64,000 nucleotides of DNA from Escherichia virus TH43. The DNA lies in sequence record MT446414.1; one strand, 5' to 3'. Below the pieces are notes generated by a model. The model had not been told where the DNA came from and searched no databases. It worked only from the letters and a program-made list of their open reading frames with translations. Shown here in pieces: positions 11,752-48,220 of the stretch (position 1 is the stretch's first letter; every line of letters begins with the position of its first letter). The translations under genes were made by a program, and so were the position numbers.

Positions 11752-12783
11752 TTATAGACCCGCAAAAACTTTAGCCGCATTTATTACCGGAATTGATATA
11801 TTAATGGCAGAGTTAGAACCTAGGTCATAATTGGTAGACCACTGGAACATATACCTACCATAGCCAGTACCTATAGAAGATCCTGTCATTACATGAGATC
11901 TCATTTGCTGATAGTACCAACCACTACCACTACCCCGAATAGCACCTACACCAGAGGAGAGTGGTATCATTGGGTATGCCATACCAGTATCACCTCCAGC
12001 AGAACCTACAAAATTATCAACAGTAAAAGGTGTTCTATTAGTAGAGAACACACACTGAGTTGTTCCGGGAGAATAAATATTTAATCCACCATTGTGCTCA
12101 GGAACTCCTGCTCCATTACAGAATACTGCGACCCTAGCAAATACAGAACCGCCTTCGTTAGAGTTTCCGTTATTATAAGATCTGTTCTGATATACACGGA
12201 TCACTCTATCTCCAGATGTATAAGAAAGGCCAACCCCTCCGTCAGACCAGTTAGCAAAGACTACAGCATTAGGCATATAAAACCCACCAATGTCAGGAAT
12301 CTGTAAAGCGCCGTTTATAGTCCCTTGCCAAGCCCAAATACACTGACCAACAACACCAGCATCAGAGATAGAGAAGTAATCAGCTGTATTAGAGAAGGTA
12401 ATACCATAATTTCTGTCAGCTCTTGGGTAGATTTGGTAAACGTTAAACCCACAATCAAACAGGGGGTTACTTCCGGGATTCTGGTTTAAGTTAACTCTGA
12501 AAGAGGAGTTATTCTCTACATAAATGTTATTAACACAATAAACATCAGGAACCAAGTTAGGAGGAACTTCCCACTGCCAGCACAGAGACCCAGTAGGGAC
12601 GATAATTATCTGACCGCTACCATCCCAACCATTAATAGGGAAAGATCTCCCACCCCCGTTAAAGTTGAAACTCCCACTAATAGAGTTCTTAATCTGAGGG
12701 AATGTACTCCCACTATCAATAAACAAAGGAGCCGGAGAGGCTGGCCCCGGTCCTACAGGTTGACACCATATTCCATATGCCAT
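11752..12783 (-). CDS. structural protein (tail-associated), 343 aa
   Basis: ORF in the tail module; no specific motif. Confidence 0.45.
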   Translation of the reverse strand: MAYGIWCQPVGPGPASPAPLFIDSGSTFPQIKNSISGSFNFNGGGRSFPINGWDGSGQIIIVPTGSLCWQWEVPPNLVPDVYCVNNIYVENNSSFRVNLNQNPGSNPLFDCGFNVYQIYPRADRNYGITFSNTADYFSISDAGVVGQCIWAWQGTINGALQIPDIGGFYMPNAVVFANWSDGGVGLSYTSGDRVIRVYQNRSYNNGNSNEGGSVFARVAVFCNGAGVPEHNGGLNIYSPGTTQCVFSTNRTPFTVDNFVGSAGGDTGMAYPMIPLSSGVGAIRGSGSGWYYQQMRSHVMTGSSIGTGYGRYMFQWSTNYDLGSNSAINISIPVINAAKVFAGL

Positions 12784-12784
12784 A

Positions 12785-13807
12785 TTACCAACTCCCTATT
12801 CTAATTCTCAAAGCACCACCACCGTCATAGAAATCAATCCTGTTACCATTCATCCACAGCTGTGCCCCACCTGTACCACCCATAACAAAATCCCCACCAA
12901 CTGTAAGTCTCCAGTTAGAACCACTCATAGAGCCAGCAGTAATCTTGTTAGCAGTAAGGTTAGCAATCTGTCCATCTTGAATCCACACGTTATCAATCTG
13001 AGCAAACTGGATTCGAGCATTAGCAATCTGAGCAGTTGTAATGTTGACATTCTTGATATCAGCGAATTCCATTCTAGCTCTACCACCTTCAAAAACAAAA
13101 GGAGTATTACCAGAGTTGCCATCACCAACAATAAACTTATTAGCCGTTACTTGGAATTGGCTGTTCGTGCCGTTGTTAGTTAGTTTAACACCAGCGTACT
13201 GACCATTAACAGAAGAGTTGACACCCCATGTAGCTTCGTAACTATCTAGTCTCATGTATTGAGAAAGAGAGTTCTGTACAGTAGTAACCTTACCATCCAC
13301 TTCGGCAATCTGAGTACCTTGAGCAGTAAGTTCTGTCTGAACTAAAGCAATCTCTTGTCCTTGTTCATTCACAATACCTTGTACTGTCTGAATCTTTAAA
13401 TCATTACCTTCAATAGAAGTTTTGAAACCTGCAACTGTACCATCTAGTTTAGTCGGAGGGTTAGTGCTTCTATCCCAAATATCTTCAGTAGAAAGATTAC
13501 CCATCTGTGTTTGGATATCAGCAATAGCTGTTTCAATCTCTGTAGTAATTCGGTTCTCAAGTTCATCAAACTGTAGGTTCATTGCATTAAGAGCTTTAAT
13601 ACGAACATCTATCTCTTCATGAATCTCGTCGATTGCTTGGAACATCTGGTTAGTTGCTGTACTGACTTTCTGTAATTCATCATAAACTGCAACGTTGTAT
13701 TTATCCGTATCCTCTACATTGTTTAGAAACCCAACGTTGTAGGGAAGTGTGGTGTTGTTTCTTCCAGTATTCTTACGAAAACCTCCAGCACCCATAAGTA
13801 CCTCCAA
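12785..13807 (-). CDS. tail fibre-like protein, 340 aa
   Basis: N-terminal coiled-coil segment followed by Gly/Asn-rich C-terminal region; tail-module position. Confidence 0.45.
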   Translation of the reverse strand: MEVLMGAGGFRKNTGRNNTTLPYNVGFLNNVEDTDKYNVAVYDELQKVSTATNQMFQAIDEIHEEIDVRIKALNAMNLQFDELENRITTEIETAIADIQTQMGNLSTEDIWDRSTNPPTKLDGTVAGFKTSIEGNDLKIQTVQGIVNEQGQEIALVQTELTAQGTQIAEVDGKVTTVQNSLSQYMRLDSYEATWGVNSSVNGQYAGVKLTNNGTNSQFQVTANKFIVGDGNSGNTPFVFEGGRARMEFADIKNVNITTAQIANARIQFAQIDNVWIQDGQIANLTANKITAGSMSGSNWRLTVGGDFVMGGTGGAQLWMNGNRIDFYDGGGALRIRIGSW

Positions 13808-41695: not shown

Positions 41696-41855
41696 GTTCA
41701 CCACTGGTCACACTGTTCGCCTTGTTGGCGGTACTCAAACAGGTGTTATTCGTCGGAGAACAACGATTGATGGTGTTCTCTGTTATCTTGTTCAGTGGAA
41801 TGGTGAATCCTCTCCTTCCTTCGAACGTCGTACTGATTTGGTGTTAATCAAATGA
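41664..41855 (+). CDS. small SH3/KOW-like protein
   Basis: HTVRLVGGTQTGVIRRRT ... YLVQWNG pattern; start uncertain (ATG 41664 or 41679). Confidence 0.35.
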   Translation: MRKQRMRSRVKFTTGHTVRLVGGTQTGVIRRRTTIDGVLCYLVQWNGESSPSFERRTDLVLIK

Positions 41856-42082
41856 AAATTAATCTCCCATCTTTAGTTGTTACTAAAAAGCTCAGCGATC
41901 TACGTCCGGGTGATGTATTCCGTCTACCAACTAACTCTGAACACCTCTATCTAAAGACAGACACCTGCCTGAATGATATGCATCGTGTGGTTGGTCTTCG
42001 TCAGGGAACACTATTCCAGTTACAGGAACATCATGAAGTTATCCCTGTATTTGATGTTCAAGTGACTAATATTGGTGGTTAA
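41852..42082 (+). CDS. small protein, PGDVF-motif family member 1
   Basis: LSDLRPGDVFRL motif; ATGA overlap with upstream gene. Confidence 0.5.
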   Translation: MKINLPSLVVTKKLSDLRPGDVFRLPTNSEHLYLKTDTCLNDMHRVVGLRQGTLFQLQEHHEVIPVFDVQVTNIGG

Positions 42083-42307
42083 ATGAAGATTGACATTGAT
42101 AGTACGCCAGAGGTTGTAACTCTCGGAGACCTAAATCCGGGTGAAGTCTTCCAGTTTAACTACAATGAAACTCAATACTACATGCGTACTGCGTGTTATG
42201 GTGAAAACAAAAGTTATTTTGTTAACCTTTATACAGGTAAGCGTGATTCTGAGTGTAAATCGACTGTAGTCAGACCTGTACCTAACGCACAACTAACCAA
42301 CAAGTAA
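42083..42307 (+). CDS. small protein, PGDVF-motif family member 2
   Basis: LGDLNPGEVFQF motif; tandem to member 1. Confidence 0.5.
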   Translation: MKIDIDSTPEVVTLGDLNPGEVFQFNYNETQYYMRTACYGENKSYFVNLYTGKRDSECKSTVVRPVPNAQLTNK

Positions 42308-43242: not shown

Positions 43243-43494
43243 GTGTTCAATCGTTTATTTGACCGTAAAGGTCGCACTGACATACTGATACCTTCTATCG
43301 GTGTGCCAGCTAAGTTCGGTGAGATACGTGCTGGTGACTTCTTCATGGAATCAGGTCGTCTTCATCTGAAGATCAACCTCGATCACGCTGTTGAAATCCT
43401 CAGTGATGATAAGCCAATCATCGGCACTTCGGTGTACAGTGCAAACCATACTGTATTTGTTGTCAATGTTCAGATTGAGATTAAATCACCATGA
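43243..43494 (+). CDS. small protein, PGDVF-motif family member 3 (divergent)
   Basis: GEIRAGDFFME motif; GTG start with AAGGGG upstream. Confidence 0.45.
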   Translation: MFNRLFDRKGRTDILIPSIGVPAKFGEIRAGDFFMESGRLHLKINLDHAVEILSDDKPIIGTSVYSANHTVFVVNVQIEIKSP

Positions 43495-43748
43495 AGACAA
43501 ACTTCCGAGCAGCAGTTATTACGAAAGTAATAGCAGTTGGCGATGTAATGATGCAGGTTCCTCTGAACACTCGTTACATTGCCATTGACCGAATGGGTTA
43601 TGTGTGGGCTTGGAAGTGGAAGCCTACTTATAACGAACTGTTCGACGAATACCAGTGCGCTGGACCTTACATGCCAACCTTAATCGGTGTGTATGAAGAT
43701 GGTCCTTGTCGTACTCCTCAGTTAATCGAACTACCGGCGTGTGCTTAA
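43491..43748 (+). CDS. hypothetical protein, 85 aa
   Basis: ATGA overlap with upstream gene. Confidence 0.45.
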   Translation: MKTNFRAAVITKVIAVGDVMMQVPLNTRYIAIDRMGYVWAWKWKPTYNELFDEYQCAGPYMPTLIGVYEDGPCRTPQLIELPACA

Positions 43749-43749
43749 T

Positions 43750-43911
43750 ATGATTAAGTGGCTAAAGCGTGTCTTCCATTGTCATGATTGGAAGATTATT
43801 AACACCCGTCCTCTGGTCTATACAGATTCAGATGGGAACAATGACAAGGGCACACGTTACGTTATTCAGTGTAAGGTGTGTGGTGATGTTAGTCATCGTG
43901 ATGTAATCTAA
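43750..43911 (+). CDS. small zinc-ribbon-like protein, paralog 1 (53 aa)
   Basis: MIKWLKRVFHCHDW ... CKVCGD; below track cutoff. Confidence 0.45.
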   Translation: MIKWLKRVFHCHDWKIINTRPLVYTDSDGNNDKGTRYVIQCKVCGDVSHRDVI

Positions 43912-43920
43912 GGAATCATT

Positions 43921-44085
43921 ATGATTAAATGGTTCAAACGTCTATTTCATTTCCATGAGTGGGAAGATCTTTCTACTTATGAACTGACGATCACAAATAA
44001 ACTTACTGACAGAGAGCGACAAGGGTTGCGTATCTACTCTCGCTGTAAAGTGTGTGGTCTGCACAAGAAAACAGACCTGATTTAA
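43921..44085 (+). CDS. small zinc-ribbon-like protein, paralog 2 (54 aa)
   Basis: MIKWFKRLFHFHEW ... CKVCGL; AAGGA upstream. Confidence 0.45.
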   Translation: MIKWFKRLFHFHEWEDLSTYELTITNKLTDRERQGLRIYSRCKVCGLHKKTDLI

Positions 44086-44093
44086 GGGGTGTT

Positions 44094-44303
44094 ATGTTCT
44101 TTCGTAAGAAAAAGCCCGAAGATTCTGGATGTAAACACGAGTGGGTGATCACTGAAAACCTTCAAATCACTCACGCTAAAGACACTCCAGTCGAGAGAAA
44201 AGAGTCTCGTGTATCTCGTATCTGTAAACGCTGTTTGAAAATAGAACAGCATAAAGTTCCCGGTCATATCGGTCACGATGTGGCCTTGCGTATCTTCAGT
44301 TAA
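44094..44303 (+). CDS. small zinc-ribbon-like protein, paralog 3 (69 aa)
   Basis: CKHEW ... CKRC; AAGGGG upstream; track start 44052 trimmed. Confidence 0.45.
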   Translation: MFFRKKKPEDSGCKHEWVITENLQITHAKDTPVERKESRVSRICKRCLKIEQHKVPGHIGHDVALRIFS

Positions 44304-44337: not shown

Positions 44338-44760
44338 TTGAAGATAGAGTTAGAATACCCCTTCGTTAATGACTGGCGATTGGGCTACTTAAGAACAAGC
44401 AGAGACGGTAGGAAGCGTGTTGATTTGTATAATACCGACACGGAGAGGACAACCATTTCTTACGCAAGATATTTAATGTCTTGTCACATAGGCAGGTACC
44501 TAACTGAAGACGAGGAGGTTGATCATATTGACAGAAATAAAACTAATGATGACATATCTAATCTTCAGATACTTTCCATAGAAAATCACAGAAAGAAGTC
44601 AACATTAGAAGCAACTACTGGAAGAACAATGATTTCAGTTGTTTGCTCTTATTGTGGAAGATCTTTTGAAAAAGAAAAGCGAAATGTTAAATATGCAAAT
44701 TCTTTTTGTAACAGATCATGTGCAGGTAAGTATAACGGTTTCAAATCTATCGGGGCGTAG
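44338..44760 (+). CDS. HNH homing endonuclease
   Basis: EVDHIDRNKTNDDISNLQILSIENHRKK is a classic HNH core, plus C-terminal CxxC ... C...C; TTG start with GGAGGGG upstream. Confidence 0.65.
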   Translation: MKIELEYPFVNDWRLGYLRTSRDGRKRVDLYNTDTERTTISYARYLMSCHIGRYLTEDEEVDHIDRNKTNDDISNLQILSIENHRKKSTLEATTGRTMISVVCSYCGRSFEKEKRNVKYANSFCNRSCAGKYNGFKSIGA

Positions 44761-44826
44761 TCTAGTGGAACAGGCAGCGAGCTTCTAACTCGCCTTACGA
44801 GGGTTCGAATCCTTCCGTCCCGACCA
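44751..44826 (+). tRNA. tRNA-Arg (anticodon UCU)
   Basis: Manual cloverleaf: acceptor CGGGGCG/CGTCCCG, D-arm GTCT-AGTGGAAC-AGGC, anticodon arm GCGAG-CTTCTAA-CTCGC, T-arm GAGGG-TTCGAAT-CCTTC, discriminator A, encoded CCA; 76 nt. Confidence 0.8.
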
Positions 44827-44837
44827 ATTTTAAACAA

Positions 44838-44952
44838 GGGCTAGTATGGGTACGGCACCAGAGTTAGTGTATCCCTGTTGAGGCAAGTGCTTTTATAACA
44901 GTGGGAATTGCTTTCTTAGTGAGCTTCTGGTTCGATTCCAGATAGTCCACCA
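44838..44952 (+). ncRNA. tRNA-like element of aberrant length (about 115 nt)
   Basis: Canonical T-arm TCTGG-TTCGATT-CCAGA and CCA end; acceptor pairing GGGCTA/TAGTCC only if the 5' end is at 44838; internal hairpin 44872-44906; no standard cloverleaf found by hand. Confidence 0.35.
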
Positions 44953-44971
44953 AATCAAATAGGAGGTGCTT

Positions 44972-45298
44972 ATGAGTTGGGGTGGTGTAATTACCTTAAC
45001 CTGTATCTTTATCGCCTGTGTAGCTCTTACAGGCTGCGTACAGCATCGTCCTGATGGATGGTGTGCATTATCGGTAGAAGGTGTCTGTGTTTCCCGTTGG
45101 CATAGCGGGGAGAAGATTCCTAGTGGTGAAATTGATATGCGTTATGCTGGTGCTTCTTGTTCCAATGGCGGTGCTGTTGACGAGAAGGCTTATGCAAAGC
45201 GTGATATGGCTACCCAAGGTGATTGGTCACGTTATGACTTCATCTCCCGTGGTGAGCTGTGTGGTGGCTCTGTGACAACAACAGGTAAGGAGTGGTGA
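44972..45298 (+). CDS. putative lipoprotein (Cys-rich)
   Basis: Signal peptide ending in lipobox-like LTGC; AGGAGGT upstream of ATG 44972. Confidence 0.5.
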   Translation: MSWGGVITLTCIFIACVALTGCVQHRPDGWCALSVEGVCVSRWHSGEKIPSGEIDMRYAGASCSNGGAVDEKAYAKRDMATQGDWSRYDFISRGELCGGSVTTTGKEW

Positions 45299-45299
45299 T

Positions 45300-45554
45300 A
45301 TGTCCGGTCATTATTCTGATACGAAAGCTCTACTTGAAACAGCGGCTCAAACTTCATGCCAACAGCAAGTAAAAATGCTGTTGGTTGATATCCGTAATCT
45401 TCGTTGGCTTATTAAAGAAGGTCATCTCGGTAACGCTGCCTATTACAACGTTAAAGATATCCTTCGCCGCCAGCACTTTCTTATCCACGGAAACGTGGTA
45501 ACTCGCAACTATCAATGGAACGGTGAATGGTTACAGCAGCGTATGTCCTCCTGA
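45300..45554 (+). CDS. hypothetical protein, 84 aa
   Basis: ATG two nt after the upstream stop. Confidence 0.4.
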   Translation: MSGHYSDTKALLETAAQTSCQQQVKMLLVDIRNLRWLIKEGHLGNAAYYNVKDILRRQHFLIHGNVVTRNYQWNGEWLQQRMSS

Positions 45555-45781
45555 TTTATGTTATTGGTTGGTGGTTGGCAGCCATTGTAGTTAAATGGTG
45601 CTTCAAAACCAATACACTCTACAACTTCTTCCATTCCTCATGGAGTGGTAAGCCTGATGAATACTCTATTTGGACGGTGATATTCTTCTGGCCTTTTATG
45701 CTGATCTTTATCCTCTTCTTACCTTTACTTATGTTGATAGGCTGGGTAATGGATAAGGTGACAGTCTTTATTACTAAGTAA
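45527..45781 (+). CDS. small integral membrane protein
   Basis: Two or three hydrophobic helices (WWLAAIVV..., IFFWPFMLIFILFLPLLMLIGWV). Confidence 0.4.
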   Translation: MVTAAYVLLIYVIGWWLAAIVVKWCFKTNTLYNFFHSSWSGKPDEYSIWTVIFFWPFMLIFILFLPLLMLIGWVMDKVTVFITK

Positions 45782-46325: not shown

Positions 46326-46580
46326 ATGAAAGTTAACATGCCAGCAGGTAAAAATTCAATACCCCTCAGTGCTTTGCGACTTGGGGATTGCTTCATGTAC
46401 CCTAACAGTGAAGATGGTGATTTGTACATCTTACTGTCTACCGAGTTCTCAACTCGCTTGTGCATTAAGGGTGCGGACGAGCACAGACTTGTAGCCTGTC
46501 TTAACACAGGCCGAGCGACAGCGCCTCGTAAAGATGTTGCTGTTATTCCTATTAAAGCTGAAGCAATTATTAAGGAATAA
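46326..46580 (+). CDS. small protein, PGDVF-motif family member 4
   Basis: LSALRLGDCFMY motif; AAGGTGG upstream. Confidence 0.45.
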   Translation: MKVNMPAGKNSIPLSALRLGDCFMYPNSEDGDLYILLSTEFSTRLCIKGADEHRLVACLNTGRATAPRKDVAVIPIKAEAIIKE

Positions 46581-46583
46581 GCA

Positions 46584-46850
46584 ATGACAGTTCTTACTAT
46601 CAATAAGACTCGTGTTGCAGATATCCCTCTGACTGTTCAGGGGATTCTTCCCGGCTCTTTCTTTACCCTTAAAGAAGATAAAGAACAAACCCTTTACATG
46701 AAGGTAAACAAAAGCTCTAACGGTTCTGAATACTCTCGAGCCGTGTCTATGCAGAGTGGGTACGTTCGTAATATGGCACCTAATATGCCAGTTGGTGTTG
46801 TATTTGAATCAGCAACTCTGGATTTAGTGGAGAAGGTTAGTGAAACGTAA
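46584..46850 (+). CDS. small protein, PGDVF-motif family member 5 (divergent)
   Basis: GILPGSFFTL motif; tandem to member 4. Confidence 0.4.
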   Translation: MTVLTINKTRVADIPLTVQGILPGSFFTLKEDKEQTLYMKVNKSSNGSEYSRAVSMQSGYVRNMAPNMPVGVVFESATLDLVEKVSET

Positions 46851-47735: not shown

Positions 47736-47969
47736 ATGTCTAAAGTTAGCGCAATTGATGCCATCCGCCAGCCGTTCCAGTTCCAGTCCAAATCAACCCA
47801 AACCTTCAGCGAACCTCGCCAGATTCGTCTGGGCGGCACAGAGAAATCTGTGTTTGATATTGCGAAAAATAAAAGCGTGACCATCGTCGAAGGTGGTGAG
47901 CTGGTTAATGTTTCCCATCGTATCCGCACTGGTAAAACTGCCAAAGATCGTGCTAAGAAAGGTCTGTAA
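47736..47969 (+). CDS. hypothetical protein, 77 aa
   Basis: ATG with AAGGTAA upstream. Confidence 0.45.
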   Translation: MSKVSAIDAIRQPFQFQSKSTQTFSEPRQIRLGGTEKSVFDIAKNKSVTIVEGGELVNVSHRIRTGKTAKDRAKKGL

Positions 47970-48220
47970 TGCAAATTGCTAATAAAACCCCTCCTGAATC
48001 AATTATCCAAGTAAAGGATATGTCACCGGGAGATGTATTTCGTGCAACGGAATATCCGGGGGATTTCTTTATTCGAATCCCCTCAGCATCTGTTGGTGGT
48101 ATCGCTAAACCGGTAACAGCAGTTCAGCTAAGTACGGGTCATCTCTTCCGTTTAGAGATTGATATGATTGTGATTCCTGTTCCAACAGCAATCCTCCGCT
48201 TCGACGGAGCCACAGAGTAA
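47969..48220 (+). CDS. small protein, PGDVF-motif family member 6
   Basis: VKDMSPGDVFRA motif; followed by repeat copy B, as member 2 is followed by copy A. Confidence 0.5.
   Translation: MQIANKTPPESIIQVKDMSPGDVFRATEYPGDFFIRIPSASVGGIAKPVTAVQLSTGHLFRLEIDMIVIPVPTAILRFDGATE

Follow-up and report, generated by a model that had tools for sequence, protein, structure and literature searches.

A putative lipoprotein gene in the early region of Escherichia virus TH43

The stretch of DNA analyzed here (the window) is 64,000 nucleotides of Escherichia virus TH43 (sequence record MT446414.1), with positions numbered from its first letter. At 44972–45298 on the plus strand it carries a gene for a putative prolipoprotein of 108 amino acids, a match to PF24052 and phrog_4281 and thus to the family of Rtp45, the lipoprotein of coliphage Rtp. 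The gene begins with an ATG at 44972, ends with a TGA at 45296–45298, and is preceded by a Shine-Dalgarno sequence, AGGAGG, that is read directly from the sequence at 44961–44966, 5 nt before the start codon; an earlier first-pass annotation, made from the letters alone, had called both the open reading frame (ORF) and this strong ribosome binding site, and both are confirmed. The sole possible earlier start is a GTG at 44966, which lacks Shine-Dalgarno spacing, and an N-terminus beyond it is ruled out by an in-frame TAG at 44960–44962.

Judged from its sequence, the window is that of a Gordonclarkvirinae podovirus (phiEco32/ECBP2-like, C3 morphotype). About 96 Escherichia and Shigella podovirus genomes of 70–79 kb match the DNA around the lipoprotein gene, including those of ECBP2 (classified in its record as Suseptimavirus), SU7, EK010, TH34, and Bas86–91 of the BASEL collection. 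The minus strand carries the late structural genes between about 2.8 and 33 kb, and from about 34.6 kb onward there is a long series of small plus-strand genes, followed by replication genes. This arrangement mirrors the published layouts of both phiEco32 and SU10, in which transcription of the late genes runs counter to that of the early and middle genes.

The N-terminal part of the protein has the characters of a lipoprotein signal. Residues 1–21 (MSWGGVITLTCIFIACVALTG; 44972–45034) form a strongly hydrophobic leader that ends in LTG, hydropathy and a pattern test identify the lipobox L19-T20-G21-C22, and signal peptidase II (SPII) is predicted to cleave before Cys22, the predicted lipid-attachment site, which is encoded by the TGC at 45035–45037. 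A six-frame scan of the window for [LVI][ASTVI][GAS]C after a hydrophobic stretch returned this ORF alone, at two alternative starts, so the signal is no chance pattern, and the signal peptide ending in LTGC that the first-pass annotation described is borne out. Since Val rather than Asp follows Cys22 at +2, the Lol sorting rule leads one to expect sorting to the outer membrane. No C-terminal hydrophobic or membrane segment was found in the protein. The Cys content is lower than first reported: 9 Cys had been counted in about 90 residues, but there are 7 in all, at positions 11, 16, 22, 31, 39, 63 and 97, of which two belong to the leader that is cleaved off, C22 would receive the lipid and the other four (C31, C39, C63 and C97) are farther along the mature chain, giving 5 in the 87 mature residues. 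The argument that had been made from a Cys-rich protein was therefore overstated.

All six Gordonclarkvirinae genomes examined carry the gene, among them phiEco32, SU10, ECBP2, Bas91 and the reduced genome of Bas92, where its orthologs are phi32_106 (annotated as 'putative phage lipoprotein'), SU10_0104 ('putative lipoprotein'), ECBP2_0100, Bas91_0098 and Bas92_0078. It differs from the ECBP2 gene by two synonymous changes and nothing else, the proteins being 100% identical, and comparison with the 93-residue homologs of phiEco32, SU10, Bas91 and Bas92 gives ratios of nonsynonymous to synonymous substitution rates (dN/dS) of 0.22–0.27, which indicates purifying selection. In the five annotated genomes that list the tRNA, a tRNA-Arg gene lies just upstream, with a gap of between about 20 nt (phiEco32) and about 250 nt (ECBP2); no tRNA is annotated at the site in the SU10 record, whose lipoprotein gene is at the syntenic position.

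This position suggests that the gene is expressed early, since CDS 69–125 are counted as early in the SU10 paper, on the analogy of phiEco32, whose genome was classified by experiment. Scans for promoters and terminators were uninformative, which leaves synteny as the basis for this timing. There is no enrichment of the phiEco32 middle/late element TAATGTATA, with 16 sites in the window where 18.8 are expected, and the site closest to the lipoprotein gene, at 45747, has one mismatch and lies downstream of it; sigma-70-like sites in the window are fewer than in shuffled sequences. A terminator-like match at 44976–45000 lies inside the lipoprotein ORF and was taken as a chance occurrence.

Relationship of the protein to Rtp45

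The sequence places the protein clearly within the Rtp45 family, where it stands out by a variant loop and by the unusual location of its gene. It matches PF24052 ('Phage_lipoprotein') with 123.4 bits against a gathering cut-off of 27, over positions 1–80 of the 80 in the model, and phrog_4281, which also holds the Rtp45-like gp40 of ACG-M12, with an E value of 2.3e-34. Among the sequences of the Protein Data Bank (PDB), phmmer finds one real relative, chain D of entry 9RPS (E 1.4e-15, with residues 6–70 aligned); at E≤10 the search returned this chain and two lysozymes, and nothing else. Entry 9RPS is a structure, solved by cryo-EM, of the Shigella LptDE-LptM complex with Rtp45 (PMC12685063).

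Several features of the alignments support the assignment. First, the HMMER alignment to 9RPS chain D defines a conserved core at residues 26–60 (RPDGWC31...C39...GEIDMRY.G; 45047–45151), within which 19 of the 33 residues from 26 to 58 are identical to Rtp45 (counted by hand on the phmmer alignment), and this core includes the strand and the hairpin by which Rtp45 touches LptD in 9RPS (PMC12685063). Second, C31 and C39, both invariant, align with the C30 and C38 of Rtp45, which form a disulfide in the structure (Cys30–Cys38; PMC12685063). Third, 15 positions are invariant among 24 podovirus and siphophage members (G21, C22, D28, G29, W30, C31, C39, G46, G52, D55, R57, G60, G99, E107 and W108), and the last three of these are in the C-terminal strand GGSVTTTGKEW (45263–45295), which carries the family motif G-S...KEW.

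Between the core and the C-terminal strand the podovirus proteins depart from their siphophage relatives. Cys63 and Cys97, which are present in all of the Gordonclarkvirinae members aligned, flank a loop (45158–45262) of 33 residues here and in ECBP2 and of 18 in phiEco32, SU10, Bas91 and Bas92, with other lengths in two metagenomic forms; the siphophage members have few residues at this position and no Cys63–Cys97 loop. The loop, a region of low confidence in the structural model described below, appears from the alignments to be a clade-specific decoration, and it may be closed by a second disulfide between C63 and C97.

The family is small and restricted to phages, as an exhaustive profile search of 1.84 billion proteins yielded 18 representative clusters. 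Three of these (P0063, P0075 and P0076) are long proteins with multiple matching stretches, and P0063, the one inspected, is repetitive and was judged spurious. A word-indexed homolog search with the window protein gave nine matches, all within the podovirus clade; the siphophage members came from a second search with a siphophage query.

The family in siphophage genomes

The siphophage members have a characteristic genomic neighborhood. T1-like and Dhillonvirus genomes have, immediately 3′ of the family gene, a gene of about 320 codons for an LptD-binding receptor-binding protein (RBP), either Rtp44 or the Oekolampad RBP, and the J tail-tip gene and this pair are convergent; resistance mutations in lptD led the BASEL study to connect the RBP locus with LptD (PMC8594841). 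In IMG/VR, a DUF6453 gene starts just downstream of the lipoprotein gene in 25 of 25 T1-like and Dhillonvirus loci, and three Webervirus-like loci have a DUF6453 gene about 10 kb from the lipoprotein gene. PF24052 and DUF6453 were found together in every genome that could be checked. The 25 loci and those of the Webervirus type thus tie the family specifically to RBPs of the LptD type.

Comparison of the window protein with two siphophage members, Rtp45 itself (Q333D9; 9RPS chain D) and Oekolampad Bas18_0026, shows both kinship and divergence. All three belong to PF24052 and phrog_4281, have a lipobox leader, the core RPDGWC...C...GE(V/I)D.RY and a KEW end, and have a DUF6453 protein encoded in the same genome. 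Unlike the other two, the window protein is encoded by a podovirus gene that is in the early block beside tRNA-Arg and not immediately upstream of the DUF6453 gene, whose homolog is found on the opposite strand at a distance of 33 kb; it also has the 33-residue Cys63–Cys97 loop and a leader without a basic residue, and its identity to siphophage members is 42–51%. There is precedent for such uncoupling in Webervirus, the T1-like phages of Klebsiella, where lipoproteins of the same family with the same ...TTTGKEW end (e.g. QZE50886 of vB_KpnS-VAC8) are encoded among DNA-metabolism genes, about 10 kb from the DUF6453 gene. These are, however, siphoviruses of another host genus, and their lipoproteins have no Cys-flanked insertion.

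The public labels of the family members are inconsistent. F10C_0048 of Escherichia phage Chapo (4992–5222 of its locus) is labeled 'u-spanin', the Webervirus matches at four loci (L005 and L019–L021) overlap features labeled 'PDDEXK-like family protein' or 'transcriptional regulator', and the LptD-type RBPs are widely labeled 'membrane protein; moron' by way of phrog_1265. As a consequence, the RBP and exclusion module is hidden in the annotations.

A homolog of DUF6453 RBPs and a needle with a J-type tip domain

The DUF6453 homolog of the window is the counterpart of SU10 gp19, a protein of 343 amino acids encoded at 11752–12783 on the minus strand and homologous to the LptD-binding RBPs of siphophages (Rtp44 and RBP-Oekolampad). 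The relationship is detected in several ways: by tblastn (E 3e-15), by Pfam DUF6453 (89.9 bits, cut-off 25), by phrog_1265 (351 bits) and by phmmer to chain C of 9RPT (E 1e-12), which is the Oekolampad RBP on LptDE. An AlphaFold 2 model of the protein, with a predicted local distance difference test score (pLDDT) of 82 and a predicted template-modeling score (pTM) of 0.84, has 9RPT chain C as its sole significant Foldseek match (E 2.7e-13, TM-score 0.80). Across the Gordonclarkvirinae gp19 is conserved yet variable, with identities of 45–100%. Public records label it 'membrane protein' or 'hypothetical protein', and its membership in phrog_1265 explains the misleading 'membrane protein' annotations. 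Searches of NCBIfam gave no match for the gp19 homolog, for the lipoprotein or for the product of the gene downstream of the lipoprotein gene.

The gene directly before that of gp19, at 12785–13807 on the minus strand, encodes the tail needle (the SU10 gp18 homolog), and residues 178–322 of the needle are a PF09327 tail-tip domain (Pfam, 89.9 bits). The J proteins of ACG-M12 and Bas85 also have PF09327 at their C-termini, and BLASTP aligns needle residues 210–340 with J residues 1009–1138, in both cases through the last residue. On the basis of these similarities we propose that the C-terminal domain of the needle is a docking site for the DUF6453 protein, and that the gp19 homolog is the cognate RBP whose receptor the lipoprotein masks.

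A probable role in superinfection exclusion at LptDE

The structure of Rtp45 offers a model for what the lipoprotein might do. On LptD, Rtp45 sits near strands 5–8, at the periplasmic side close to the outer membrane and between LptE and LptM, and its β-hairpin enters the LptD lumen and shifts extracellular loop 4 (EL4) by up to 20 Å, so that RBP binding is precluded (PMC12685063). From kinship and synteny we consider it probable that the window protein is, likewise, an outer-membrane lipoprotein of the Rtp45 family, made early and acting in superinfection exclusion at LptDE. By analogy with Rtp45 it would be exported, lipidated and sorted to the outer membrane (Val at +2), with formation of its disulfide, and would then bind LptDE, insert its β-hairpin into the LptD lumen and push EL4 outward. 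With EL4 displaced, RBPs of the DUF6453 type would be unable to bind, and the infected cell, and later its debris, would no longer adsorb LptD-dependent phages.

The genome content suggests that the excluded phages would include the present phage itself. The long fibres would bind O-antigen first, and the needle tip with gp19 would then recognize LptDE as the terminal receptor; on this inference LptD would be the phage's own receptor. If the needle-gp19 complex does use LptDE, the lipoprotein would be a true superinfection exclusion factor that also protects progeny from debris. The DUF6453 homolog, the J-type needle tip and the lipoprotein mean that all three parts of the siphophage module are present in the window, in dispersed form, and a broader and more tentative proposal, which is possible, is that this LptD-targeting module was grafted whole onto the Gordonclarkvirinae (Kuravirus, Suseptimavirus and relatives), with LptDE as terminal receptor. 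In such a module the J-type tip domain would form the end of a P22-like tail needle (gp18), the DUF6453 RBP (gp19) would dock on it, and the lipoprotein gene would have been relocated to the early operon. Needle release and nozzle formation would then be set off when needle and gp19 bind LptDE, and the door would be shut behind the first genome by the early lipoprotein.

The first-pass annotation had proposed a receptor-masking or superinfection-exclusion lipoprotein, and homology to PF24052 and 9RPS chain D supports that proposal in kind. Its example, Llp of phage T5, is apt as a functional analog: Llp follows the same logic, being an early outer-membrane lipoprotein that binds its own phage's receptor from the periplasmic side and blocks the RBP (PMC9586334, as cited in PMC12685063). 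As a homolog it fails, since there is no detectable sequence kinship and no Llp chain was returned by the PDB search at E≤10; Llp also differs in its target, FhuA, and in acting by long-range allostery rather than loop displacement (PMC12685063). Cor of T1, phi80 and N15 (phrog_1119) is likewise a small lipoprotein encoded beside an RBP locus and named as a superinfection-exclusion protein, but it falls below the family threshold, resembles the family in the signal peptide only, and is linked to RBP loci of the FhuA type. Kinship with Rtp45, together with the absence of homology to Llp and Cor, implies LptDE rather than FhuA as the target.

Points against this role and alternative explanations

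A number of observations weigh against a role in exclusion at LptDE, and they concern the lipoprotein, gp19 and the biology of the phages. First, Lys and Arg are absent from the n-region of the leader, where MSWGGVI is invariant across the Gordonclarkvirinae members, and a Sec/SPII signal without a positively charged n-region is unusual; a long-loop relative (P0061, on contigs of about 640 bp, too short to show its neighbors) has a canonical basic leader. Second, with an identity to siphophage members of 42–51% and a 33-residue insertion, the target specificity of the protein could have drifted. Third, the AlphaFold 2 model of the lipoprotein, made from a 24-sequence alignment, is poor (pLDDT 57.8) and serves as a sanity check only; a Foldseek search of the PDB with this weak model nevertheless returns 9RPS chain D and no other chain (E 4.6e-3, probability 1.00, TM-scores 0.33/0.57), and the authors of 9RPS report that AlphaFold 3 mispredicts Rtp45 too (PMC12685063). 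Fourth, the gp19 homolog is only 23–27% identical to RBPs validated as LptD-binding. Fifth, mass spectrometry of SU10 virions detected 34 proteins, among them gp16–18 and gp20–24 but not gp19, and the SU10 cryo-EM paper makes no mention of gp19; in a needle resolved at 15 Å with imposed threefold symmetry, a tip protein present as one copy might have escaped notice. Sixth, the alleles of the two genes do not co-vary, in that the ECBP2 lipoprotein is 100% identical to that of the window and its gp19 46%. The two proteins would act on opposite faces of LptDE, which is compatible with the absence of co-variation and lends no positive support. Finally, the available part of PMC12685063 presents the Rtp45 structure and contains no plating assay with Rtp45-expressing cells, and dependence on O-antigen is the only dependence reported for Gordonclarkvirinae in the BASEL phenotyping.

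Several of these observations would also fit a simpler role, in which the lipoprotein acts at LptDE to bar competing siphophages from a podovirus that does not itself use LptD, with gp19 serving as an assembly factor, a non-virion protein or an RBP for another receptor. The failure to detect gp19 in the SU10 virion proteome and to assign it in the cryo-EM study is in keeping with such a role, as are the dependence on O-antigen that alone is reported for these podoviruses and the separation of the lipoprotein and gp19 genes by 33 kb without co-variation. Yet PF24052 and DUF6453 occur together in every checkable genome, the gp19 gene directly follows that of a needle with the same tip domain that bears the RBP of siphophages, and gp19 combines conservation with high variability, as is typical of RBPs. 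We therefore regard cross-exclusion of other phages without self-exclusion as unlikely, while giving it more weight than the alternatives that follow.

Less likely again is that the protein has kept the family fold and binds a different outer-membrane protein, with its specificity supplied by the Cys63–Cys97 loop and gp19 recognizing the same protein. The divergence from LptD-associated members, the insertion of 15–33 residues and the low identity of gp19 to the validated RBPs leave room for this, and a 2023 review gives the receptors of SU10-type podoviruses as unidentified (PMC10743462). However, the region corresponding to the LptD contacts (residues 26–58) is the best conserved part of the protein, with all invariant positions kept, the insertion is outside this core, and siphophage RBPs with 33% mutual identity still share LptD (PMC12685063).

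An early lipoprotein that plugs LptDE could alternatively serve host takeover, stopping the export of lipopolysaccharide (LPS) and O-antigen and so remodeling or weakening the outer membrane, with exclusion a side effect. By synteny the gene is in the early host-takeover block, and Rtp45, which lies between LptE and LptM in the lumen of LptD (PMC12685063), might in principle hinder transport. We consider this improbable, as it is with RBP genes, and not with those of lysis or metabolism, that the family is closely associated, and LPS already at the surface would presumably outlast a short lytic cycle.

Two further readings are contradicted by the data and have very little to recommend them. 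A lysis protein, either an o-spanin (Rz1-like) or a unimolecular spanin, is brought to mind by a small outer-membrane lipoprotein with Cys residues and by the 'u-spanin' label of the Chapo homolog, but there is no C-terminal transmembrane domain (TMD) and no adjacent or overlapping i-spanin gene (the 84-residue protein encoded downstream lacks an N-terminal TMD), the solved homolog Rtp45 binds LptDE (PMC12685063), and the spanin pair of ECBP2, phiEco32, NJ01 and KBNP1711 is encoded by other genes, ECBP2_0034/0033 (Kongari 2018 supplement), Bas92_0029 being labeled 'Rz-like spanin'; the homologs of ECBP2_0034/0033 would be in the middle region, outside the window by coordinate arithmetic. Equally implausible is a homolog of T5 Llp or of T1/phi80 Cor that blocks FhuA: the general type is alike, a small early or moron lipoprotein, and the original Rtp paper reportedly likened Rtp45 to Cor, but T1 Cor reaches 17.7 bits where PF24052 requires 27, hhalign pairs 18 signal-peptide columns and no others, Cor has a separate PHROG, and no Llp chain is among the PDB matches, so that homology is contradicted at the sequence level.

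Implications of a proposed LptDE-directed lipoprotein

LptD is essential and conserved, and these podoviruses are frequent therapy candidates against avian pathogenic and extraintestinal pathogenic Escherichia coli (APEC/ExPEC). A second, unrelated virion architecture aimed at LptD would for this reason matter for the design of phage therapy. A gene product previously annotated as a 'putative phage lipoprotein' can now be assigned a specific candidate function backed by a structure, that of an LptDE blocker, and the lipoprotein, the DUF6453 RBP homolog and the J-type needle tip together make LptDE a concrete candidate for the terminal receptor. If this is correct, it bears on the prediction of cross-resistance and cross-exclusion between siphophages and podoviruses, and it illustrates how receptor modules move between tail types. 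We found no paper that ties Gordonclarkvirinae to LptD, DUF6453 or an Rtp45-like exclusion protein, within an incomplete coverage of the literature that leaves a prior mention possible.

Neighboring genes and other small early genes

The gene downstream of the lipoprotein gene (45300–45554, plus strand) starts 1 nt past its stop codon (TGATATG) and encodes a protein of 84 amino acids that matches phrog_13462, has no Pfam match and lacks an N-terminal TMD. By position, a small ORF is directly downstream of the lipoprotein gene in 5 of 5 relatives examined. The next ORF (45527–45781, plus strand) also has 84 codons, and its product has hydrophobic segments.

Upstream, the tRNA-Arg gene is at 44751–44826 on the plus strand, and a gene for an HNH homing endonuclease (44338–44760; phrog_14913, Pfam HNH_3) ends 10 nt inside it. 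The HNH gene is present in Bas91 and absent at this site from ECBP2, whose match to the window begins at 44961, and it looks like a mobile insertion beside tRNA-Arg. The segment between tRNA-Arg and the lipoprotein gene (44838–44953, plus strand) terminates in a perfect T-arm, 3′ acceptor strand and CCA (TCTGGTTCGATTCCAGATAGTCCACCA), and a complementary 5′ strand, GGGCTA, is about 110 nt upstream; some relatives share this segment and phiEco32 lacks it. A second tRNA here found no support, there being no Rfam call, no ARAGORN call at relaxed settings and a fold z score of −1.4, which is not unusual. The segment may be a decayed or interrupted tRNA.

Two groups of related small genes are also found in the early region. 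Six plus-strand early ORFs of 74–88 codons (41852–42082, 42083–42307, 43243–43494, 46326–46580, 46584–46850 and 47969–48220) are diverged paralogs with 23–32% identity, which have L-x-P-G-D-V-F near residue 20 and V-I-P-V near the C-terminus; multi-copy early families of this type often serve host takeover or anti-defence. Three tandem small ORFs on the plus strand (43741–43911, 43921–44085 and 44052–44303) have a common H-x-W ... C-K-x-C pattern and seem to encode small zinc-ribbon-like proteins that arose by duplication; the products of the first two begin MIKW(L/F)KR.FH.H(D/E)W, and the third overlaps the second in another frame, with an uncertain start.

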